Shown: positions 453-12,403, counted from the first letter of the stretch. The stretch: 12,432 bases of DNA from Candidatus Helarchaeota ASGARD archaeon Hel_GB_B (GCA_005191425.1 SUPR01000096.1:1-12432), one strand, 5' to 3'. Numbers and translations: made by a program. Notes: a model not told the origin generated them from the letters alone.

Positions 453-1493
453 ATGAAAGATCTTCCAATAATAAGGAATTTTAAAAGAAGGCGTATTTCA
501 AGTCATGACCCAACTCATGGAAATAAAGATTTTTTAGTTATTAAGAGAGATGAGAAGAGGGTTATTGCGGATATCGGCGGGCCGGGTTGTATTGTACATA
601 TTTGGTGTACAATGGATTGCAGTTCAAGATATTATCTAAGAAAAGTAGTATTGAGAGCTTATTGGGATGGAGAAAAAAGTCCAAGTATTGAAGTCCCGAT
701 AGGTGATTTTTTTGGGATTGGGCATGCGATTTGTAAGAATTTTGTTTCGATGCCTCTTTCAATGTCTCCTGAAAATGGTCGTGGGTTTAATTGTTATTTT
801 CCAATGCCATTTGAGGAGCGGGCAATATTAGAAATAGAGAACGAAGCAAAATCCACGCTATTGTTTTATTTTTATATTGATTTTGAACTATATGATAAAT
901 TGCAAGAGAATATGGGTAGGTTTCATGCCTGGTGGAATCGAGAAAATCCATGTGAAGGCGTTTCAGATGAACATTTTTCAAATAATGTGAGCTTTTTGTT
1001 GCAGGGTAAGAACACGGATTTTTCAAAAAATTATTTGATTTTGGAAGCAGAAGGGAAAGGACATTATGTTGGATGTAATATTAATATTCACAATTTAAGA
1101 GAGACTTCAGAACATAATTGGCCCGGTGAAGGTGATGATATGATTTACATTGATGGTTCTGAGCAACCAATAATTTATGGAACAGGAACTGAGGATTATT
1201 TTAATTCTGCATATTGTCCAACTCAAGAATATAATTCATTATATCATGGAATAACGCTACCTGGAGGTAAAAATTGGTCAGGAAAAATCTCTTACTATCG
1301 GTTTCATATATTAGACCCAATTTATTTTGAAAAATCAATAAAAGTAACAATTGAGCACGGACATGCAAATAGATTGGCTAATGACTATAGTTCAACAGCC
1401 TACTGGTATCAGATTGAGCCGCATAAAAAGTTCAAACTATTATTGCCGGTAAATGATAGATTACCTAGGAAATTACCTAAGGAAATAGTTTGA
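453..1493 (+). CDS. DUF2961 / glycoside hydrolase family 172-like protein
   Basis: 346 aa with family motifs GPGCIVHIWCT, LRAYWDGEKSPSIEVPIGDFFG, NCYFPMPF, WPGEGDDMIYIDG, GTGTEDYFN, YRFHILDPIYF, IEHGHAN and YSSTAYWYQ. No signal peptide is evident. Confidence 0.9.
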   Translation: MKDLPIIRNFKRRRISSHDPTHGNKDFLVIKRDEKRVIADIGGPGCIVHIWCTMDCSSRYYLRKVVLRAYWDGEKSPSIEVPIGDFFGIGHAICKNFVSMPLSMSPENGRGFNCYFPMPFEERAILEIENEAKSTLLFYFYIDFELYDKLQENMGRFHAWWNRENPCEGVSDEHFSNNVSFLLQGKNTDFSKNYLILEAEGKGHYVGCNINIHNLRETSEHNWPGEGDDMIYIDGSEQPIIYGTGTEDYFNSAYCPTQEYNSLYHGITLPGGKNWSGKISYYRFHILDPIYFEKSIKVTIEHGHANRLANDYSSTAYWYQIEPHKKFKLLLPVNDRLPRKLPKEIV

Positions 1494-1804
1494 AAAAATG
1501 AAATATGAGACAAATATCAAACAAAAACAGTAGTTACCAGATTTAAAATTCTAAGAAACAAGATTTGAAAAAATATTCAAATAATAATTAAATTTTTAAT
1601 ATTGATTTAAAACAATTTTTTAAAATTTAAAATATTTAACTGCTTTAAAAGCTCATAAATATAAATATTGAAAAAATTTAAAGAAATTAATGTTTCATTT
1701 TTAAATATAGATCATAATTTAATTTAAAAAAAAATAAAAAAATATAATATAAATTAATAGACTTGAAAAAATAGGTCAAAAAATTATTATTTTTAGTGAT
1801 ATCA

Positions 1805-2992
1805 ATGCGAGATGTATATATAGTAGATTATTTGAGAACAGCATTTTCAAGGTCAAGGCCAAGGCAACCTGAGCGAGATGTATTTAATTGCTATAGAGCA
1901 GATGATCTTGCAAGTTTTGTGTATGAGGAGCTTGTAAAAAGGACGAAAATTAATCCGGAAGAGATTGGAGATGTATTAACGGGGTGTGCTTTTCCAATTG
2001 GGGAGAATTGGATGTATGGTGGTAGGACAGTTAGTTTATTAGCTAAATTACCGTTAAGCGTCCCAGCAGCTGGAATTGATCGTCAATGTGCGTCAAGTCA
2101 AACAACAATTCAGTATGGTGCAATGGAAATAATGACTGGATTTTCAGATATAGTGCTTGCGGGAGGGATGGAACATATGACCCATCATCCGATGGGTGAA
2201 GGAGTAAAGCCAAGTCCAAAGTTAGGGCAACATCCTAGTGGTTTTGAAGCAGCGGTAGCAATTAATATGGGTTTAACAGCTGAAAAATTGTTTAATGAAG
2301 TAAAAGATAAGATAACAAGAGAGGATATGGATAAATGGAGTTTAAGGAGCCATGAACTAGCCGCAAAAGCTGTTGATGAAGGGTATTTTAAAGGAGAAAT
2401 ACTTCCCGTAGAGGTCACATTGGCAGACGGTACTAAAAAAATTATTGATGTTGACCAGTCCATTCGTCGTGGTGGGACAATGGAAAAAATGGCTCAATTG
2501 AAACCTGCTTTTAAGAGAAAAGGTAATATTACAGCGGGAAATTCGTCGCCCTTAAATGCTGGAGCAGCAGGAGTTATTTTAATGACAAAAGAGCAGATGG
2601 AGAAATATAACTTAAAACCATTGGCTAGAATAGTTTCTATGGCAGTCGCAGCAGTAGATCCAAGTGTAATGGGAAAAGGGCCCGTACCTGCATCGAAAAA
2701 GGCATTAGAACGAGCTGGGCTAACTGTAGATGATATCGATTATTGGGAAATTAATGAAGCTTTTGCAATTGTTACACTATATTGTATTGACCAATTAGGA
2801 ATAGACCCAAATAAGGTAAATATAAAGGGCGGGGCTATAGCGTTAGGACATCCATTAGGGGCTAGTGGAGCTAGATTAACCGGGACTTTAGCTCGAATAT
2901 TAAATCTCGAAAAAGGAAAATACGGACTTGCAAACCTCTGCGTTGGTGGAGGACAGGGAACAGCAATTGTAATCGAACGAGTAGAAGATTAA
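1805..2992 (+). CDS. Thiolase (acetyl-CoA C-acyltransferase, FadA/AtoB-like)
   Basis: Contains the nucleophile motif DRQCASS, NEAFA, GGAIALGHPLGASG (catalytic His) and CVGGGQG (catalytic Cys). The ORF track starts at GTG 1796. ATG 1805 is preferred because GTGAT lies 4 nt upstream of it, as at other genes here. Confidence 0.95.
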   Translation: MRDVYIVDYLRTAFSRSRPRQPERDVFNCYRADDLASFVYEELVKRTKINPEEIGDVLTGCAFPIGENWMYGGRTVSLLAKLPLSVPAAGIDRQCASSQTTIQYGAMEIMTGFSDIVLAGGMEHMTHHPMGEGVKPSPKLGQHPSGFEAAVAINMGLTAEKLFNEVKDKITREDMDKWSLRSHELAAKAVDEGYFKGEILPVEVTLADGTKKIIDVDQSIRRGGTMEKMAQLKPAFKRKGNITAGNSSPLNAGAAGVILMTKEQMEKYNLKPLARIVSMAVAAVDPSVMGKGPVPASKKALERAGLTVDDIDYWEINEAFAIVTLYCIDQLGIDPNKVNIKGGAIALGHPLGASGARLTGTLARILNLEKGKYGLANLCVGGGQGTAIVIERVED

Positions 2993-3000
2993 ATACTATT

Positions 3001-3019
3001 TTATTTTACTCATTTTTTT
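3001..3019 (+). terminator. Possible archaeal oligo-T terminator after the thiolase
   Basis: TTATTTTACTCATTTTTTT (T7 at 3013-3019) just after the stop at 2992. Weak evidence in such AT-rich DNA. Confidence 0.3.
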
Positions 3020-3099
3020 AAAATTACTCGTAATATTAGTAATCGAAATAATTTTGGATTCGAATTAAATTTTCATAAATATTTGATGGTGGGAAACAA

Positions 3100-3822
3100 A
3101 TGCTTTTAGAAAATATGACCTGGAAAGAAATCGAAGATTATGTGAGAAAAAATAAAGTTATATTAATACCTACTGGTGTATATGAGGAGCATGGTTTTCA
3201 TCTTCCAGTTTCTACGGATAATGACATTGGTATGTATATATCAAAAAAAGTAGGAGATAATTTAGATTTAATTGTTGCGCCATTAATTCCATTTGGAATC
3301 TCCAGAAAAACAAGGGAATTCCCTGGTTCTATTATGCTACAATTTGAAACTTTTAAACATCTTATTGAAGATATTTTGATAAATTATTTAGAAAATGGTT
3401 TTAAAAAATTGATAATATTTTCTTTTCATGGCTCCAGCAATCATTTAATGGCTCTAAACGAAGCTGCATATACAATTAAAAGAAAATGGCGGAACGAGCC
3501 AGATGTTCATATATACATAATATCAAGTAAAGATATTAGTGATAACAGAATTTTTAAATTATTAAAATCAATTCCAATCCATTCAGGAGAATTAGAAACA
3601 TCTATTATGTTATATTTATCAGAAAATCTTGTAAAAATTGATAAAGTTATAAAAGAAGAACCAAAATTTCCTGATTATGAGCTATTATTAACAGGACGCC
3701 CTTGGATGAAAAGTGGAGTCATGGGAGACCCTGTAAAAGCTACAAAAGAAAAAGGTGAATCTATTATAAAGTTTTTTATTGAAAATTTAACCAATAAAAT
3801 TAGAAAAATTATTGAAAATTAA
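3100..3822 (+). CDS. Creatininase-family amidohydrolase (creatinine amidohydrolase / ArfB / MftE superfamily)
   Basis: Motifs ENMTW, IPTGVYEEHGFHLPVSTD, FHGSSNH, HSGELETS and SGVMGDP match the family pattern. The substrate cannot be determined from sequence. Confidence 0.9.
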   Translation: MLLENMTWKEIEDYVRKNKVILIPTGVYEEHGFHLPVSTDNDIGMYISKKVGDNLDLIVAPLIPFGISRKTREFPGSIMLQFETFKHLIEDILINYLENGFKKLIIFSFHGSSNHLMALNEAAYTIKRKWRNEPDVHIYIISSKDISDNRIFKLLKSIPIHSGELETSIMLYLSENLVKIDKVIKEEPKFPDYELLLTGRPWMKSGVMGDPVKATKEKGESIIKFFIENLTNKIRKIIEN

Positions 3823-3849
3823 ATACTCCAAGGGGATATAATAAAAAAA

Positions 3850-4203
3850 TTATTCATATAATGTCCCAAGCCATCCTTCATCATTTCCTTTTTCATCAAG
3901 AATATTGAAATTAGTAACGACCAAGATTTCTTTTTTTTCTCCTTCTTCTTCAACAATTTTTTTTATTTTAATCATTCTTATATAATATATAGCATTACAA
4001 TTTCTACATTTTACTTTGTAATCAATTATTTCCTTTTTTGATTCGTCAGACTCTTCTATGTTAATTTTTTTTTCAAGAAATTCTAATACAAATTTATTTT
4101 CCATTGAGCACCTAATACAAGCCTTAATATTTATTGGTTGGAATCCCCTTCTTCCTAATGGAATGTAAATTGTGTCTGGTAATTCATCAGCTAAATTTGC
4201 CAT
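3850..4203 (-). CDS. Hypothetical protein with two CxxC motifs (putative Zn ribbon)
   Basis: 117 aa ORF with CIRC...CRNC and a GTGAT motif 4 nt upstream of its ATG. It fills the gap between convergent and divergent neighbours with no overlap. Confidence 0.8.
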   Translation of the reverse strand: MANLADELPDTIYIPLGRRGFQPINIKACIRCSMENKFVLEFLEKKINIEESDESKKEIIDYKVKCRNCNAIYYIRMIKIKKIVEEEGEKKEILVVTNFNILDEKGNDEGWLGTLYE

Positions 4204-4482
4204 TTAGATCACATATACTTTGTAAATTTTTTAATTTGTTCATGAATTAAATTGTTTAATTATAAATTTAATTATATAAAAACAAAACCTAAATTGAATA
4301 AGAATTTAATTGTAAATATTAGTATCTAATTTAAAAAAAAACTATATTAATGGATAAGTTAATTTTTAAATTAAATAACAGAACTTGAAATGTGAAAATA
4401 GAAATAATATATTTATTTTAATAATGTATTCATTTTGTAAGAGATTAAATATACAATTTTGTATAGTTTGAATTTTTACTAT

Positions 4483-4500
4483 CAGAAATTTTATATAAAA
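4483..4500. promoter_or_regulatory. Candidate archaeal BRE-TATA promoter (the TATA part is palindromic, so either direction is possible)
   Basis: CAGAAAT-TTTATATA fits the BRE+TATA pattern, and TTTTATATAAAA (4489-4500) is a perfect palindrome. It lies in the divergent spacer. Confidence 0.35.
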
Positions 4501-4917
4501 ATTAATTTTTTTTTATTTACTTGGCGAAAAATGAATTACCTTAAAATCTACGGCTAATACTTTGAGAAAAAATCAATAATATAGCTTAATTCCAAATTAT
4601 TATTTAAAGAATAGATTTTGAAGACTTTTAAATATTAAAGAGAATAAAATCTATAAAAAATAATATAGAAAAATAAAGACATGATAAGAGATAGAAATAT
4701 ATTTCAGATCATTTATCAGTCTCAATCTTTTTTAGAAAAAAAATTAAATTGTGATATAGTTATAACATGATTTCGGAAAAATTTAAATAATTATTTTAAA
4801 AAACCTTTATAGTTTAATCTAAGAAAAATGTGAAATTATGTTTCAATTTTTAATTTTTAAATGATAGTTAAATTAATAGTGAAAAATTATAAGATATTAA
4901 AAAGATATAAAATATTA

Positions 4918-4922
4918 GTGAT
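4918..4922 (+). promoter_or_regulatory. Archaeal Shine-Dalgarno-like GTGAT upstream of argG
   Basis: GTGAT-N4-ATG, the same spacing as at 1796-1800 (thiolase) and 4208-4212 on the minus strand (Zn-ribbon gene). Confidence 0.6.
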
Positions 4923-4926
4923 ATAA

Positions 4927-6171
4927 ATGTTTAGGGCTACATATTCACCGAAGATAGAAGATTTGAAGAATAAACCAGTAGTTTTGCTATATTCAGGTGG
5001 GCTGGATACAAGTACGATGTTAGTTTGGTTGCAAGAAAATTATAAATGTGAGGTAATATCATGCACAGTTTCAATTGGTCAGAAAGGAAAGGATTTTAAG
5101 CAATTAGAGGAAAAAGCATATAGATTAGGCGTAAAAAAACACTATACAATAGATGCGCGTGAAGAATTTGTAGAAAATTATCTATTTCCAGCTATAAAAG
5201 CAAATGCTTTATATGAAGGTGCATACCCATTGCATTCGGCATTGTCGCGTCCATTATTAGCCAAATATGCGATAGAAATTGCAGAAAAAGAAAATGCAGT
5301 AGCAATAGCTCATGGATGTACAGGAAAAGGTAATGACCAAGTTAGAATAAATATTACAGCCTTTACATTAAATCCAAAAATAAAGATAATTCAACCAGTT
5401 GTTGAGTGGGGCTTTTTAAGAGACCAAGAAATCGAATATGCGCACAGCCATGGAATTCCAATTCCAGAAAAGTCAGTTTATTCAATTGATGAAAATATAT
5501 TTGGAAGGAGTATCGAATGTGGAGAATTAGAATTTCCAGATAAAGAGCCACCTGCCGATGCATTTGAGTGGACTACTGACCCAAGAGAAGCGCCAAATGA
5601 CCCAGAATATGTAGAACTAACATTTAAGAGAGGGATCCCAATTAAATTAAATGGGGAGTCGATGAATGGCTATGAATTGATCCAGAAATTAAATGAAATT
5701 GCTGGAAAACATGGAGTAGGTAGAATAGACCATTTGGAGGACCGAATTGTAGGGCTTAAATCAAGAGAGCTTTATGAAAACCCAGCAGCAGTTGTTTTAA
5801 TAAAAGCTCATAAAGATTTAGAAAAAGGAGTATGTACAAGTCAAGAAGTAGATTTTAAAAATATGGTAGACCAGCGATGGGCATACATGTGTTATGCAGG
5901 ATTATGGTTAAATCCATTAATGGATGATTTAAATGCATTTATAAATGAAGTAAATAAAAAAGTGAATGGGACAGTTAAATTGAAATTATTTAAAGGAAAC
6001 GCCGAAGTAGTAGGCAGAAAATCAAAATGGCTACTTTATGACTATAAACTTGCTACATATGAAGGAATTTCGACCTTCAATGAAAAAGCTTCATATGGTT
6101 TCATTGAGCTATGGGGATTACAAACAAAGATGAGCTATCAAATAAAAAAACAAAATGAAAATGAAGATTAA
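4927..6171 (+). CDS. argG: Argininosuccinate synthase
   Basis: Motifs LYSGGLDTS, ANALYEGAYPL.SALSRPL, AHGCTGKGNDQVR, YSIDENIFGRSIECG and GKHGVGRIDHLEDRIVGLKSRELYE. Confidence 0.97.
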   Translation: MFRATYSPKIEDLKNKPVVLLYSGGLDTSTMLVWLQENYKCEVISCTVSIGQKGKDFKQLEEKAYRLGVKKHYTIDAREEFVENYLFPAIKANALYEGAYPLHSALSRPLLAKYAIEIAEKENAVAIAHGCTGKGNDQVRINITAFTLNPKIKIIQPVVEWGFLRDQEIEYAHSHGIPIPEKSVYSIDENIFGRSIECGELEFPDKEPPADAFEWTTDPREAPNDPEYVELTFKRGIPIKLNGESMNGYELIQKLNEIAGKHGVGRIDHLEDRIVGLKSRELYENPAAVVLIKAHKDLEKGVCTSQEVDFKNMVDQRWAYMCYAGLWLNPLMDDLNAFINEVNKKVNGTVKLKLFKGNAEVVGRKSKWLLYDYKLATYEGISTFNEKASYGFIELWGLQTKMSYQIKKQNENED

Positions 6172-6366: not shown

Positions 6367-7887
6367 ATGATTAAAATGACTGAAAAGCCTTGGTCTGGTA
6401 GGTTTGATTCAGATATAAAAAAAGAAGTATTAGATTATTCTGTAGGAGACGATATTGATTTAGATAAAGAATTAATAATTCACGATATAATTGGAACTGA
6501 AGCTCATGATATAATGCTATATAAAGTTGGAATTTTGAAGGAACAGACCATTAAAAATATATTAACTGGGCTTGAGAGGATTAAAAAGTTAGTTTTAGAA
6601 AATAAGTTTATATTAGAGAAAAATTTTGAAGATGTACATATGAATATAGAAAAAGCAGTGATTAATTATATTGGAGAAGATGATGGAGGAAATATACATA
6701 TTGCAAGGTCTCGAAACGACCAAATACAGCTTGATTTACGTTTATTTATGCGAGATAATATTATAGAAATTTTGGAACAACTAATAAATTTAATAGAATC
6801 ATTAATAAATAAGGCGAAATCTAATTTAGATACAATTATGCCAGGGTACACACACTTTCAATTAGCTCAGCCAATTACATTTGCGCATTGGAGTATGTCA
6901 CATGTAGATGCCTTTATTCGAGATTTTGAAAGTATTAATACAGTCTATAAACAAATTAACCAATCACCTTTGGGTGCAGCTGCAATGGCAGGTGTAAGTT
7001 GGAAAATTGACCGAAAATTAACAGCAGATTTACTCGGGTTTGATAGTGTTCAGGAGAATACATTAGATTGTATTTCATGTAGAGGCGAATTTATTGCAAA
7101 ATTATTGAGTAGTTTTTCTATTTTAATGATACATCTTAGTAAAATATCCGAAGATTTTATCCTGTGGTCTACGAGGGAATTTAATATGGTTGAAATCAAC
7201 GATTCATTTGCGACTGGAAGTAGTATAATGCCACAGAAAAAAAATCCAGATATCTGTGAGTTAATCAGAGCTCGCACTACTGTGCTTAACTCATTATTAT
7301 TCCAAGTTTTAAATATAATTAAAGGACTTCCATCAGGATATCATAGAGACCATCAAGAAACTAAATATCCTTTAATTAAAAGTATTAAGATAGTAAAAGA
7401 ATCAATATCAATAATGACTGGATTAATTAATACAATAATATTAAAAAAAGATAGGATGAATGAATTAGTAAATAATAATTTTATAGCTGCTACAGAAGTT
7501 ATGGATTATTTAGTAAAACATGGAATTCCTCTTAGGACTGCCCATAATATAGTAGGAAAATTTATTAAAGGTCTAATAAAAAATTCAGTATATTCATTAA
7601 ATCAAGCTAAAGTTGAAATATTAAAAAATCTTGTCAAAAATGAATTACAGATAGATTTAAAAATAACTCAAAAAGAATTTGATGATTTAATAAATATTGA
7701 AAATATTATTAAAAATAGAAATTTAATTGGCGGTCCTGCTCCAGAAGAAGTATCAAGAATGATAAAAGATAGGACTGATAAAATTCAAATTTATAAGAAA
7801 ATAAATGAACAAATTAAAAATAAAAATAAGACAACAAAATTAAAACTAAATGAATTGGTTAAATCTATAATAAATGGAGGTAAATAA
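6367..7887 (+). CDS. argH: Argininosuccinate lyase
   Basis: Motifs PWSGRF, HIARSRNDQ, MPGYTHFQLAQP, SPLGAAAMAG and the fumarase-superfamily signature GSSIMPQKKNPD. The true start may be ATG 6376 (TGAT-N4-ATG spacing). Confidence 0.96.
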   Translation: MIKMTEKPWSGRFDSDIKKEVLDYSVGDDIDLDKELIIHDIIGTEAHDIMLYKVGILKEQTIKNILTGLERIKKLVLENKFILEKNFEDVHMNIEKAVINYIGEDDGGNIHIARSRNDQIQLDLRLFMRDNIIEILEQLINLIESLINKAKSNLDTIMPGYTHFQLAQPITFAHWSMSHVDAFIRDFESINTVYKQINQSPLGAAAMAGVSWKIDRKLTADLLGFDSVQENTLDCISCRGEFIAKLLSSFSILMIHLSKISEDFILWSTREFNMVEINDSFATGSSIMPQKKNPDICELIRARTTVLNSLLFQVLNIIKGLPSGYHRDHQETKYPLIKSIKIVKESISIMTGLINTIILKKDRMNELVNNNFIAATEVMDYLVKHGIPLRTAHNIVGKFIKGLIKNSVYSLNQAKVEILKNLVKNELQIDLKITQKEFDDLINIENIIKNRNLIGGPAPEEVSRMIKDRTDKIQIYKKINEQIKNKNKTTKLKLNELVKSIINGGK

Positions 7888-8067
7888 TTGACAAAAAAGG
7901 GTACATGTCCATCATGTTATTTTGAAATAGAAGTTAATGATGATGTAATATTAGGAGAAATATTAGAGTGTCCTGATTGTTCTTCGGAATTAGAAATCAT
8001 AGAAATTAAGAATGATGAAGTAGTTTTCCAAATTGCAGAAGAAGTCGAGGATGACTGGGGCGAATAA
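7888..8067 (+). CDS. lysW: LysW/ArgW amino-group carrier protein (59 aa)
   Basis: Not in the ORF track. TTG start directly after the argH stop, with GGAGGT at 7876-7881. Translation: MTKKGTCPSCYFEIEVNDDVILGEILECPDCSSELEIIEIKNDEVVFQIAEEVEDDWGE. It has two CPxC motifs, 18 of 59 residues acidic, and a C-terminal DDWGE (canonical EDWGE). Confidence 0.97.
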   Translation: MTKKGTCPSCYFEIEVNDDVILGEILECPDCSSELEIIEIKNDEVVFQIAEEVEDDWGE

Positions 8068-8090
8068 TTGAATAAATTGGTTGTGATGAA

Positions 8091-8978
8091 TTGCATTTTA
8101 CTTTAATTTGTAATAAAATTAGCTGGGAAGAAAAAGAGATCATAAAAGCTGCTCGTAAGAGGAATATAGAATACGACATAATTTTAAATCATGACTTAGT
8201 ACTTGACTTAGAAAAAGAGCATTTCGATACAGACATATTTCTACAGCGTTCATTGAGCTATTTTAGAGGATTATATATTAATGCAATTCTAGAAAACCAA
8301 GGATATAGGGTAATAAATTCGTTTCATTGCGCGCAAATTTGTGGAAATAAATTACTAACGACATTAGAATTAGTCAAAAATAAAATCCCAACACCAAAAG
8401 CCTATTGTGCATTTACAAAAAAGGGCGCTTTAGAAGCCTTAGAAAATTTAGGTTATCCTGCAGTAATTAAGCCAATAGTAGGTTCTTGGGGTAGATTAGT
8501 AGCACTTCTTAAGGACAGGGATTTTGCAGTTGCAGTTTTAGAAGATAGAGAAACATTAGGGCAACTGTATCATAAAATTTTTTACTTACAAAAATATATT
8601 TGGAAGCCAGCTAGGGATATTAGTGAATTTGTTTCCACTAGAGACGAGCCACCAAGAGATATTCGAGTTTTAACTATAGGTAATGAAGTAATAACTGCGA
8701 TGTATCGATATGAAATAAAGGATGATTGGAGGAGTACTGCAACATTAGGAGCTCGTAGTAAGCCATGTAAAGTTACACCCGAAATGGAGAAAATTGCCCT
8801 AAAGGCTGCAAAAATAGTAGACGGAGAAATTTTGGGCCTGGATTTAATGGAAACAGACAATGGTTATTTAATTCAAGAAATTAACCACACTTCAGGATTT
8901 AAAGCAGCCTCTTGGACGACAGGTACTGATATTGCAGGTAGGATTATTGAATATTTAATAAAAGAATGTAAAAAATGA
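8091..8978 (+). CDS. lysX: LysX/ArgX-type ATP-grasp ligase ([LysW]-glutamate or [LysW]-aminoadipate ligase)
   Basis: Motifs ISWEEKEII, CGNKLLT, VIKPIVGSWGRLV, RDIR, GLDLME and QEINHT. It is adjacent to lysW, with a TTG start and GTGAT upstream. Context with argGH favours an ArgX role, but specificity is not established. Confidence 0.93.
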   Translation: MHFTLICNKISWEEKEIIKAARKRNIEYDIILNHDLVLDLEKEHFDTDIFLQRSLSYFRGLYINAILENQGYRVINSFHCAQICGNKLLTTLELVKNKIPTPKAYCAFTKKGALEALENLGYPAVIKPIVGSWGRLVALLKDRDFAVAVLEDRETLGQLYHKIFYLQKYIWKPARDISEFVSTRDEPPRDIRVLTIGNEVITAMYRYEIKDDWRSTATLGARSKPCKVTPEMEKIALKAAKIVDGEILGLDLMETDNGYLIQEINHTSGFKAASWTTGTDIAGRIIEYLIKECKK

Positions 8979-8990
8979 AATGATGAAAAA

Positions 8991-9818
8991 ATGAGTATAG
9001 TTATCAAGTTAGGTGGTAAATTATTATCACAAGGAGAAATGTTCAATAATGTTATTATAGATATTGCAAATATAATTAAAAAGTCTAATAAAAAAATTGT
9101 TTTAGTCCATGGTGGTGGCCCGCAAATTAATCAAATGCTAGAAAAAATTGGTAAAAAACCCCGCATTGTGAAATCAGCTTCTGGAATGGAAAGTAGAATC
9201 ACAGATAGGGAAACTGTCGAAATTGCTCAAATGGTCATGGCAGGCAAATTAAATAAAGATCTGGTAGCAAAGTTTGAATCACTACAAATTAAAGCAGTAG
9301 GTTTATCTGGAATTGATGGCAGTTTAATTAAATCTAAGAGAAAAAATAATTTAAGAATAATAGACGAAAAGACAGGTAAAAAGATCGCTTTTCACGGCGA
9401 CTTTAGTGGGAATATTGAAGAGATTAATAGCTCGTTAATTGATTTATTATTGTCAAACAATTACCTTCCAATTATAGCTCCAATTGGGATCGGGCATGAA
9501 TTTGAACCATTAAATTTGGACGGCGATAGAACCGCAGGTCATATTGCATCTGCTTTAAAAGCGGAAACATTATTTCTTTTTACTGACGTGCCCGGGATAT
9601 TGATTAATGGTAAAATTATTGATAAATTAGGAAAAGAGGAAATTGAGTCTATTTTACCAAAAGTGGAAGGCGGGATGAGAAAAAAAGTTTATGCCGCAAA
9701 TGAAGCGCTTAAAATGGGGATTAAATCAGTATTTATAGGTTCCGGGCTAATAGAAAATCCAATTTCTTCAGTGTTAGATGGTCGGTCAGGCACAGAATTA
9801 TCTTGGAAATTTGTTTAA
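8991..9818 (+). CDS. lysZ: [LysW]-glutamate / [LysW]-aminoadipate kinase (LysZ/ArgB)
   Basis: Amino-acid kinase fold motifs VIKLGG, LVHGGG, SASGMESRITD, AVGLSGIDG, LNLDGDRTA, FTDVPG and GGMRKK. The LysZ-type GKKI..HGDFSG segment is present. Confidence 0.93.
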   Translation: MSIVIKLGGKLLSQGEMFNNVIIDIANIIKKSNKKIVLVHGGGPQINQMLEKIGKKPRIVKSASGMESRITDRETVEIAQMVMAGKLNKDLVAKFESLQIKAVGLSGIDGSLIKSKRKNNLRIIDEKTGKKIAFHGDFSGNIEEINSSLIDLLLSNNYLPIIAPIGIGHEFEPLNLDGDRTAGHIASALKAETLFLFTDVPGILINGKIIDKLGKEEIESILPKVEGGMRKKVYAANEALKMGIKSVFIGSGLIENPISSVLDGRSGTELSWKFV

Positions 9819-9835
9819 TAAAATAATAGGAACGA

Positions 9836-10951
9836 ATGATTTTGTTAGATGAAATTACATATATTAAATTATTAAAAGATGCATTAGAAATTTTTTCTCC
9901 TTCAGGAAAAGAAGAAGAGATGTCCCAATTTTTATTTAATTTGCTTCAAAAGCTTGGGTACTCAAATGTAAGGATAGACAGGATAGGTAATGTAATTGGT
10001 GAAATTGGTGAGAATAGACCAATTATTTTATTATCATCTCATTTAGATACAATTAATGACAACCTCCCTGTTTATGAAGATGATGAAAAATTATATGGAA
10101 GAGGTGCTGTAGATGCTAAAGGTCCATTGATGGCACTTTTACTTGGGGCATCAAAGTTTAGTAAAAAAAAATTGAATGGAAAAATAATTTTTGCAGGGAT
10201 TGTGCAAGAAGAAATTAGTACAAAAGGAATTGATGAATTCTTAAACAGTGGGGTTCAAGCAAACTATGCAATTTTTGCAGAACCAAATAATACAAACAAT
10301 ATTGTCGTTGCTTATAAAGGGAGGGCATTACTTCAAATAGTTATGAAATCAAAAAAGGGTTCAGGTCATCCAGCAAGTGCATGGTTATTTGATAATACTA
10401 TTGAACTTGCTCATTCATTTTATTTAAAAATTAAAGAGTTTTTTAATATCAATTACAGAGGTCGTACACCCTATTTTAGTGCAATACCTACAATTACTGA
10501 ATTCTACAGCTCCGAAGGGAAAAATGTCATTCCATCAAGAGCTAAATTTTATATTGACCTTAGATTTCCAATTGGTATTAATTTTAATGATTTAATTTCT
10601 GGTATCAATAAATTAAAAGAAGATTTTATTAAGTCAAATAATTGTATTATTGACATTGAAATTTTAAGCCTTGTATTACCATATTCAACGGACCCAAAAC
10701 AAATTTTTATCCAGAAATTATCAGAATCTATTGAAAAAGTTTTGAACGTCAAAAGTAAGTTAACAAGAAAAACTGGCACTACATTTATGAATGTTATAGG
10801 TAATAAATTAGGAATTCCAACAATAAGTATAGGGCCAGGAGACCCAAAGTTAGAACACACTAAAGAAGAATTCATTTATAAAAAAGATTTTTTAAATGAA
10901 ATTAAGATAATAGAGGATTTTATAGAAAATTTCTTAGGATTGCAAAATTGA
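9836..10951 (+). CDS. lysK: [LysW]-ornithine / [LysW]-lysine hydrolase (LysK/ArgE, M20 family)
   Basis: Motifs SPSGKE, HLDT, YGRGAVDAKGP, QEE, EP, RKTGT.MN and GPGDPKLEHT, with the M20 metal ligands present. It is the last gene of the lysW cluster. Confidence 0.9.
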   Translation: MILLDEITYIKLLKDALEIFSPSGKEEEMSQFLFNLLQKLGYSNVRIDRIGNVIGEIGENRPIILLSSHLDTINDNLPVYEDDEKLYGRGAVDAKGPLMALLLGASKFSKKKLNGKIIFAGIVQEEISTKGIDEFLNSGVQANYAIFAEPNNTNNIVVAYKGRALLQIVMKSKKGSGHPASAWLFDNTIELAHSFYLKIKEFFNINYRGRTPYFSAIPTITEFYSSEGKNVIPSRAKFYIDLRFPIGINFNDLISGINKLKEDFIKSNNCIIDIEILSLVLPYSTDPKQIFIQKLSESIEKVLNVKSKLTRKTGTTFMNVIGNKLGIPTISIGPGDPKLEHTKEEFIYKKDFLNEIKIIEDFIENFLGLQN

Positions 10952-11953
10952 AACTAGTAAACCTTTTTGTAAATGTAATCTATTTTCTGCTTGATCATAA
11001 ATAATTGAGTGGGCCCCATCACAAACAGAATCTGTTGCTATTACATTCCTTCTAATGGGCATACAATGCATAAAAAATGAATTTTTATTGGTCAAGTCCA
11101 TTAATTGGTCATTACATATCCAATTTTCCCTATATGGGATTCTAAGTTTCTTTTCTTTTTGAGGGTTGCCATACTCTTTTAATGAGCCCCAAGATTTTAC
11201 ATAAACAATATCTGCGCCGGCATATGCATCTTCTAAAGTATTTGTAATTTCAAATGAACTCCCATTTTTTGAAGCATTTTTTTTTGCAATATTAATTATT
11301 TTATCGTCTAGTTCAAAACCTGGTGGATGGACTAGTGTGACGTCCAGACCAAACCTTGTTGTCGCTAGTAAGGTAGAGTTAGGGACACTGACAGGTAAAG
11401 GTCTTGGATGATATGCCCAAGATATTACAAACTTTTTATTTTTAAGGTTATTCACTTTTTCTTTAATAGTCATAATATCAGATAGCGCTTGACATGGATG
11501 ATATAAGTCATCTTCAAAATTTATTATTGGTATTTCACTAAACTTTTCAAATTCCCTTATAATTCTATTAGCTTCACCATATTTCCATTTAACTACGTTA
11601 GGAAATATTCTAATTCCAATCGCATCGGCATACCGTGATAAAACTTTGGCAGTGTCCTTAATGCTTTCACTTTTTCTTCCAACCCAACTTTTATCTGCAT
11701 CAATATAAATTGCATGACCACCAAGCTGTGTCATTCCAACCTCAAATGAATTCCTGGTCCTTGTTGATGGGCTAAAAAATAACATAATAAGCGTATAACC
11801 TTCCAACTTTTTATGTATATTATATCTTCCCTTCTTAAATGTCTTTTTTAATTCAAATGCCTTATTTAAAACATACTCTAACTCATCTTTTGACCATTCT
11901 TGAGTTGTAATCAAACTTTTATTTTTTAAAAAGACCATTGACCTCACAATCAT
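10934..11953 (-). CDS. argF': N-acyl-ornithine carbamoyltransferase-like (ArgF'/AOTCase family), not a canonical OTCase
   Basis: Has the transcarbamylase motifs STRT and HPCQ plus AOTCase-type features RIFP..V.W, SWAYHPRPLPVSVPNS, YAGADIVYVKSWG, HCMPIRRN and AENRLH. It lacks the OTCase GDGxNN and DxWxSMG motifs. The likely start is ATG 11938, with GTGAGGT upstream. Confidence 0.88.
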   Translation of the reverse strand: MIVRSMVFLKNKSLITTQEWSKDELEYVLNKAFELKKTFKKGRYNIHKKLEGYTLIMLFFSPSTRTRNSFEVGMTQLGGHAIYIDADKSWVGRKSESIKDTAKVLSRYADAIGIRIFPNVVKWKYGEANRIIREFEKFSEIPIINFEDDLYHPCQALSDIMTIKEKVNNLKNKKFVISWAYHPRPLPVSVPNSTLLATTRFGLDVTLVHPPGFELDDKIINIAKKNASKNGSSFEITNTLEDAYAGADIVYVKSWGSLKEYGNPQKEKKLRIPYRENWICNDQLMDLTNKNSFFMHCMPIRRNVIATDSVCDGAHSIIYDQAENRLHLQKGLLVSILQS

Positions 11954-11977: not shown

Positions 11978-12403
11978 TTACCATAATGCATCTTTTGTGC
12001 GTTGTTCAGGAGTATCTTCAAATATTTCTTTTATCATATCACCAAAATTACTAAAAATATTTGTATCACCATTCCAAGTATCAATAATATCTTGAAATTC
12101 TTTCTTAAACATATCTTCAACAAATTTTAAATTACTAATTATTAACTTGTTTTTAATTCCTTTTTTTGACCGCGATATAAACAGAATACCCTTGTAGCCT
12201 TGAAAGATCGTCAATTTTGAATCACCCATTATAATTGTTTTTAATTTCTTTTCACCTAATTGCTGAATAAAAGAATTAAGTGCACTAAAAAAGCCACCAA
12301 ATAACACTGGATCTATTTTATCTCCTTTAGTTAGGTTAAATAATGTAATTCCTGATGGATGTACAATCCAAATCTCTTCTATCATCCTCATTTTTTCAGC
12401 CAC
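11978..12403 (-). CDS. Stand-alone longin-like domain protein (Asgard-type eukaryotic signature protein)
   Basis: The pattern IWIVHPSGITLF...DPVLFGGFFSALNSF...I.MGDSKL...LFISRS...F.KEF...WNGDTNIFSNF resembles Asgard longin / sigma-adaptin-like domains. This is pattern recognition only. The start could be GTG 12403, ATG 12391 or ATG 12385. Confidence 0.7.
   Translation of the reverse strand: MAEKMRMIEEIWIVHPSGITLFNLTKGDKIDPVLFGGFFSALNSFIQQLGEKKLKTIIMGDSKLTIFQGYKGILFISRSKKGIKNKLIISNLKFVEDMFKKEFQDIIDTWNGDTNIFSNFGDMIKEIFEDTPEQRTKDALW

Follow-up and report, generated by a model that had tools for sequence, protein, structure and literature searches.

The systems closest to the locus analysed here are two transcarbamylases and one carrier-protein route. 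The N-acetylornithine carbamoyltransferase (AOTCase) of Xanthomonas campestris and the N-succinylornithine carbamoyltransferase (SOTCase) of Bacteroides fragilis belong to a knotted group recognized by a trefoil knot in the second domain, extended 80s and 120s loops, a proline-rich loop and a 240s loop reduced to one Lys (K252) that acts with E144. The proline-rich loop blocks the 240s-loop movement by which ornithine carbamoyltransferases (OTCases) bind ornithine, and AOTCase and SOTCase are told apart by Glu92, Asn185 and Lys302 in the former versus A/S/P/V/Q, P and V/I/E in the latter (PMC4581275). The third system is the LysW (amino-group carrier protein, AmCP) route of Sulfolobus, Thermococcus and haloarchaea, in which release from the carrier comes before carbamoylation by a canonical ArgF. 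Here we analyse a 12,432-nucleotide stretch from Candidatus Helarchaeota ASGARD archaeon Hel_GB_B (GCA_005191425.1 SUPR01000096.1:1-12432; hereafter the window), in which an argG-argH-lysW-lysX-lysZ-lysK cluster converges on a gene for a knotted-type carbamoyltransferase (hereafter argF'). An earlier interpretation (the sequence-only reading) had proposed that this enzyme carbamoylates ornithine while it is still attached to LysW. Our results make the conversion of LysW-ornithine to LysW-citrulline by ArgF' the best explanation of the locus, unproven and held with slightly better than even confidence.

The proposed route is an arginine-dedicated LysW system, termed type B here, whose last carrier-bound step would be carbamoylation. 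LysX would ligate glutamate to the C-terminal Glu of LysW, and LysZ, followed by LysY and LysJ (both encoded elsewhere), would lead to LysW-gamma-L-ornithine. With carbamoyl phosphate as donor, ArgF' would then carbamoylate the carrier-bound ornithine at its delta-amine, and LysK would free citrulline from the resulting LysW-gamma-L-citrulline for ArgG and ArgH. In a general form that we are somewhat inclined to accept, the ArgF' clade would comprise [LysW]-L-ornithine carbamoyltransferases, type B LysK would be a [LysW]-citrulline hydrolase and, in at least one genus, the pair would provide the sole route to citrulline. The gene cluster described in the sequence-only reading, including its overlap with a transcarbamylase gene, is borne out by open reading frames, family matches and an 18-nt overlap. 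Its features are as follows:

4927-6171, plus strand: argG, argininosuccinate synthase (NF001770, 535.6 bits, cut-off 334; Pfam)
6367-7887, plus strand: argH, argininosuccinate lyase (TIGR00838, 505.2 bits, cut-off 279.5)
7888-8067, plus strand: lysW (argW), type B amino-group carrier protein, zinc ribbon (PF21344, 47.3 bits; translation; subtype comparison)
8091-8978, plus strand: lysX/argX, ATP-grasp ligase, type B (TIGR02144, 290.7 bits, cut-off 275.6)
8991-9818, plus strand: lysZ, [LysW]-glutamate/aminoadipate kinase, type B (NF010659, 257 bits, cut-off 223)
9836-10951, plus strand: lysK, M20 hydrolase (TIGR01902, 213 bits, cut-off 163)
10934-11953, minus strand: argF', knotted-type carbamoyltransferase with a SOTCase-type acyl pocket, 339 codons
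10934-10951: overlap of the convergent lysK and argF' 3' ends, 18 nt
11978-12403, minus strand: orf141, small gene that shares the strand of argF' and lies 24 nt upstream of it

The lysW gene has 59 codons and a TTG start, and its product contains two CxxC motifs, the first of them followed by an aromatic pair (Y11-F12), and the tail EDDWGE. The best solved relative of LysK is the [LysW]-lysine hydrolase 5XOY (E 6e-40). The window corresponds to contig C180 of a 3.54-Mb metagenome-assembled genome (MAG; 93.7% complete, 4.9% contamination), in which the window copy of lysW is the only one detected. All components of the carrier system are detected in this genome, i.e. LysW, together with LysX, LysZ and LysK (these three above NCBIfam cut-offs), and lysY (partial, cut by the contig end) and lysJ, the last two lying outside the cluster on contig C157. 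ATCase and carB are also encoded, as is lysA; lysine therefore comes from diaminopimelate, so that LysW is not needed for lysine and would serve arginine. A second, convergent lysX(3' end)-lysZ-lysK and argF'-orf137 arrangement with 60-84% amino-acid identity is present on contig C48 (L032 1-3552; 7 kb, with a lower guanine-cytosine (GC) content of 25.4%). This copy is either a paralogue or derives from a co-binned related population (MAG contamination 4.9%).

Judged from its sequence, ArgF' is a knotted acyl-ornithine-type transcarbamylase and not an OTCase. It scores 348.5 bits against NF003384 (N-acetylornithine carbamoyltransferase), above the cut-off of 288, and 259 against the OTCase model TIGR00658, below the cut-off of 280.85; the Pfam families OTCace_N and OTCace both match. 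The carbamoyl-phosphate motifs that define the transcarbamylase superfamily (SxRT, HPxQ and HxLP) take the form STRTR (63-67), HPCQ (152-155) and HCMP (296-299), with key residues invariant in the 75 members of the ArgF' clade. On the ornithine side, K253 and E147 (equivalent to K252 and E144 of AOTCase) are likewise invariant in the 75-member clade, the proline-rich loop reads YHPRPLPVSVP (181-191) and the 120s region aligns without gaps to AOTCase. Among solved structures, chains of the X. campestris AOTCase match best (E 3e-82, 279 bits, 40% identity), followed by the OTCase of P. furiosus (212 bits), and the AlphaFold model of ArgF' (predicted local distance difference test, pLDDT, 95) superposes on X. 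campestris AOTCase structures with template modelling scores of 0.88-0.90. The AOTCase hallmarks that had been ascribed to the enzyme hold in part: YHPRP (181-185), KSWG (253-256) and HCMPIRRN (296-303) are present and the SMG motif (the DxxxSMG ornithine loop) is absent from the translation, but the discriminator residues are of SOTCase type and the 80s loop is as short as in OTCases.

We then focused on the acyl pocket. In a HMMER alignment to AOTCase chains of the 3KZC type, the discriminator positions of ArgF' are occupied by S95, P187 and I305, and among the 75 clade members by S (73) or A (2), by P (75), and by V (62), E (10) or I (3). ArgF' thus lacks Glu92, Asn185 and Lys302 of AOTCase and carries the SOTCase discriminators, which indicates an acyl pocket of succinyl rather than acetyl type; the titles of PDB entries 3L02-3L06 describe AOTCase E92S/A/P/V mutants that bind N-succinyl ligands. 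In SOTCase the succinyl group is anchored by H176, R178 and R278. The HP(K/R)P and RR motifs of the ArgF' clade contain H182 (75/75), K/R184 (69/75), R301 (71/75) and R302 (75/75), the anchors being mapped through these motifs and not by direct alignment to the B. fragilis protein. By chemical reasoning, succinyl (CO-CH2-CH2-COO-) is a close analogue of the gamma-glutamyl linkage at the C-terminal Glu of LysW. ArgF' is, at the same time, a distinct variant that shows most features of the knotted group, yet not all of them: its 80s loop is about 10 residues shorter than that of X. campestris AOTCase (short in 75/75 clade members), and its carbamoyl-phosphate motif is STRTR, as in OTCases, where AOTCase has SMRTR. 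Mean net charge is +2.7 in the ArgF' clade versus -9.7 and -10.7 in paralogous AOTCase-like clades, a difference of about 12 units, while that of LysW is -15; a basic ArgF' and an acidic LysW lend weak support to their pairing.

Convergent lysK and argF' genes recur in six Asgard lineages, i.e. the window, an uncultured-archaeon MAG (L005), families f19 and f9 (L064-L069), a Jordarchaeum MAG (L134) and a Freyarchaeota MAG (L135), mostly with argG-argH-lysW-lysX-lysZ ahead of them. Both argG and argH lie within the cluster in four of the six (window, L005, f19 and Jordarchaeum). Conserved adjacency and the co-occurrence of lysW clusters with this ArgF' clade, both anticipated by the sequence-only reading, are thereby found across these lineages. 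The f19 and f9 genomes each contain two LysW systems, namely a complete lysW-X-Y-Z-J-K set ("type A"; L099, L100 and L113) and the argG-argH-lysW-X-Z-K cluster convergent with argF' (L064-L069). The two systems differ in LysW subtype, with tails GEDWGE in type A versus EEDWGE in the argF'-linked form, and type A is the form found in Asgard genomes that lack this ArgF'.

Phylogenetic trees separate LysX and LysZ of the ArgF'-linked clusters and of genus g3 from type A, with support of 99 and 97, respectively, and unite the ArgF' proteins of all these genomes in a single clade (98) that is distinct from several further AOTCase-like clades of Asgard archaea and bacteria. The LysW alignment was assembled from fetched loci, a word-based homologue search with LysW having given just 6 proteins. 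In this alignment, each of the 15 LysW sequences found in an ArgF'-bearing context ends in E[ED]DWGE and has two aromatic residues (YF, YY or FF) immediately behind its first CxxC, whereas the pair occurs in none of 15 other LysW sequences, most of which end in GEDWGE. The closest homologues of ArgF' that carry a name belong to Asgard archaea with the labels Lokiarchaeota, Helarchaeota, Freyarchaeota, Jordarchaeum or Promethearchaeota, and every named Asgard relative among the 120 closest database matches is automatically annotated as "N-acetylornithine carbamoyltransferase". We found no lysW neighbours in bacterial relatives with 40-47% identity (Zixibacteria, Halanaerobiales, Caldilineae and Acidimicrobiia), and the LysW link is therefore specific to the Asgard clade. 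Other AOTCase-like clades occur in tandem or divergent pairs in Asgard archaea (L079-L082 and L092-L094) and in bacteria (L009, L011 and L021), and some such genes adjoin ATCase-like genes (L084, L085 and L090); these encode acidic proteins distinct from the LysW-linked clade.

A complex between the two proteins is also supported by structure prediction. We co-folded two copies of ArgF' (75-row alignment) with LysW (17 rows) alongside three controls, using a mark that 58 of 80 solved complexes attain, as do 2 of 110 mismatched pairs. The ArgF'-LysW pair passed with 0.62 versus 0.31 for the best control; runs shared at least 59% of contacts and partner pLDDT was at least 75. Confident contacts join P183, R184, P264, Q265, K268 and R275 of ArgF' to C10, Y11, F12, C28, D30 and C31 of LysW, so that in the model the aromatic pair typical of type B LysW rests against the proline-rich loop (P183 and R184), beside the acyl pocket. 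The PDB holds no LysW-transcarbamylase complex, and solved LysW complexes are only those with LysZ, LysY, LysX and ArgX; the pass is therefore not explained by a similar complex of known structure. The predicted interface supports, but does not show, binding of LysW to ArgF'.

We also analysed the distribution of these genes in 151 Asgard genomes, each at least 80% complete. The ArgF' clade is present in 18 of them, 16 of which have a LysW above the Pfam cut-off. ArgJ was found in 3 of the 151 genomes, in none of the 18 with ArgF' and not in the host genome, which supports the sequence-only reading. In genus g3 (4 genomes, 89-100% complete), neither OTCase nor ArgJ was found and ArgF' is the sole OTC-type gene. 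These genomes have single copies of lysW, lysY and lysX-lysZ-lysK, and the one argC-type and one argB-type gene found in them are of LysY/LysZ type. In g3, citrulline has to come through ArgF', and no supply of the ornithine skeleton is visible other than the LysW-bound one. LysW-ornithine and LysW-citrulline are inferred as the substrates of ArgF' and of LysK, respectively.

Several observations weigh against carbamoylation on the carrier. The expectation that a canonical argF would be absent fails: an OTCase is encoded on contig C164 of the host genome (TIGR00658, 415 bits) and in 14 of the 18 ArgF'-bearing genomes, one of them closed, including every sampled genome in which argF' adjoins lysW. 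With this enzyme the standard LysW route is complete without ArgF', and the LysW-citrulline model leaves unexplained why most ArgF' carriers keep it. Neither arcA nor arcC, which would mark the C164 OTCase as catabolic, was found in the host genome. In two families the OTCase gene directly follows ftsY in an eIF6-prefoldin-ftsY-OTC row (L148 4974-8285; L149 7259-9560), which is unusual for an arginine gene and is a housekeeping context. A catabolic role of the canonical OTCase was accordingly considered and rejected, on the lack of arcA/arcC and the housekeeping context in two relatives, which leaves the redundancy unexplained.

The linkage and the co-fold have weak points as well. In family f2, argF' is unlinked to lysW; the type A/B split is weak for LysK (support 58); and lysK and argF', being convergent, are not co-transcribed. 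The C-terminal tail of LysW is not among the confident co-fold contacts, and LysW scored 0.31 with an unrelated protein, i.e. it is somewhat sticky in the model. Two genomes of genus g8 combine ArgF' with only a divergent LysW-like gene, which encodes CxxC-YF and the tail EEDWRE instead of EDWGE (G127, L137 1156-1389, minus strand), and no clear LysX was found in them. The Pfam result had suggested that g8 has ArgF' without LysW, a case set aside when a type-B LysW profile recovered this gene.

These points bear on three other explanations. ArgF' might be a second OTCase, with LysK freeing ornithine as in Sulfolobus and Thermococcus and the use of free ornithine having re-evolved on a knotted scaffold. 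The short OTCase-like 80s loop and the STRTR motif leave room for free ornithine as a substrate, the P. furiosus OTCase comes next among the solved relatives (212 bits), and arginine synthesis in g3 would still be possible despite the missing OTCase. However, ArgF' has no DxxxSMG loop, its proline-rich loop is of the kind that blocks the 240s-loop movement needed to bind ornithine (PMC4581275), and residues at the putative SOTCase acyl-anchor positions are kept in 69-75 of 75 members. Such an enzyme would, furthermore, duplicate the OTCase of 14 of 18 genomes, and the co-fold with LysW passed; we regard this explanation as rather unlikely. An acyl substrate other than the carrier would be suggested by the NF003384 match above its cut-off, the SOTCase-type discriminators, the bacterial relatives (40-47% identity) without lysW nearby, some of which have an M20 gene upstream, and the two g8 genomes without a clear LysX. 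ArgF' would then act on free N-acetyl- or N-succinyl-L-ornithine in a small-acyl arginine route or in salvage beside the LysW system. This seems quite improbable to us, because E92, N185 and K302 of AOTCase are lacking, the three Asgard genomes with ArgJ do not have this ArgF', argF' sits in the lysW cluster in six lineages and the argC- and argB-type genes of g3 (one each, just of LysY/LysZ type) leave no visible small-acyl ornithine source.

More improbable still is that the amine carbamoylated by ArgF' is a different one, whether free or attached to a carrier, and lies outside arginine synthesis, with the adjacency an inherited gene order without functional coupling. Asgard archaea and bacteria do contain many uncharacterised AOTCase-like clades, often in tandem pairs or beside ATCase-like genes, and the lysK/argF' orientation is convergent; against this stand the clustering with argG and argH in four of six lineages, the invariant ornithine-side residues K253 and E147, and the fact that g3 would be left without a citrulline route. 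Five observations are explained by carbamoylation of LysW-bound ornithine: the kind of acyl pocket, the conservation of the gene neighbourhood, the joint inheritance with a particular LysW/X/Z lineage, the gene content of g3 and the result of the co-fold.

The window has a GC content of 28-30%. The product of orf141 matches no Pfam or NCBIfam family, giving just faint longin/SRX-like Pfam matches, and we saw no evidence that ties it to the pathway. It has paralogues on contigs C48 (38% identity) and C93, and in f2 relatives (L070 and L136) its slot is filled by a 141-amino-acid gene without detectable similarity to it. A 720-bp intergenic stretch upstream of argG (4204-4926, about 19% GC, without Rfam matches) possibly regulates the arg-lysW operon; Rfam, promoter and terminator scans of the window gave nothing relevant. 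Farther upstream (453-4203) lie genes for a DUF2961 protein, a thiolase and a creatininase-family hydrolase, and a small minus-strand open reading frame with a Churchill-like Pfam match below threshold; no link between these genes and the arginine cluster was seen.

A literature search, with most subscription journals outside its reach, returned neither an account of LysW-bound citrulline nor one of a LysW-dependent transcarbamylase, and a 2025 paper on how the LysW pathway evolved is silent on both citrulline and carbamoylation. If the proposal is true, carbamoylation of protein-tethered ornithine would be a new enzyme activity that makes carrier-mediated amino-acid synthesis one step longer, and arginine would have a third acyl-citrulline route, with a carrier protein as the N-protecting group. 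It would also correct the automatic label "N-acetylornithine carbamoyltransferase" on the named Asgard relatives and show how acetyl-, succinyl- and LysW-protected arginine pathways are related in the archaea closest to eukaryotes. The hypothesis is directly testable with recombinant proteins and intact-mass spectrometry.

Compared with the known systems, ArgF' resembles the B. fragilis SOTCase (1JS1, 2FG6/2FG7) in its proline-rich loop, the lack of an SMG loop, the S/P/V-I-E discriminators, the HP(K/R)P and RR motifs that would correspond (mapped via motifs) to H176, R178 and R278, and an M20 deacylase that acts afterwards. It differs in overall similarity (143.6 bits, below both AOTCase and the P. 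furiosus OTCase), in its short 80s loop (extended in SOTCase), in a lysW/X/Z/K context instead of a succinyl-glutamate pathway and in the proposed acyl group, i.e. the gamma-glutamyl terminus of a protein. The X. campestris AOTCase (3KZC, 3KZK and 3L02-3L06) is the best match in sequence and fold, and shares with ArgF' the K252/E144 equivalents and a score above the NF003384 cut-off, whereas E92/N185/K302 are replaced by S/P/I-V, the 80s loop lacks about 10 residues and STRTR stands in place of SMRTR. With the LysW route of Sulfolobus, Thermococcus and haloarchaea, the Asgard system has in common the carrier, ligase, kinase and hydrolase families, the EDWGE tail, and lysY and lysJ, which are present elsewhere in the genome. 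By contrast, it is of type B, with the order X-Z-K, Y and J mostly outside the cluster and an aromatic pair on LysW, and it is joined to an acyl-ornithine-type transcarbamylase, with release from the carrier proposed to follow carbamoylation and not to precede it.

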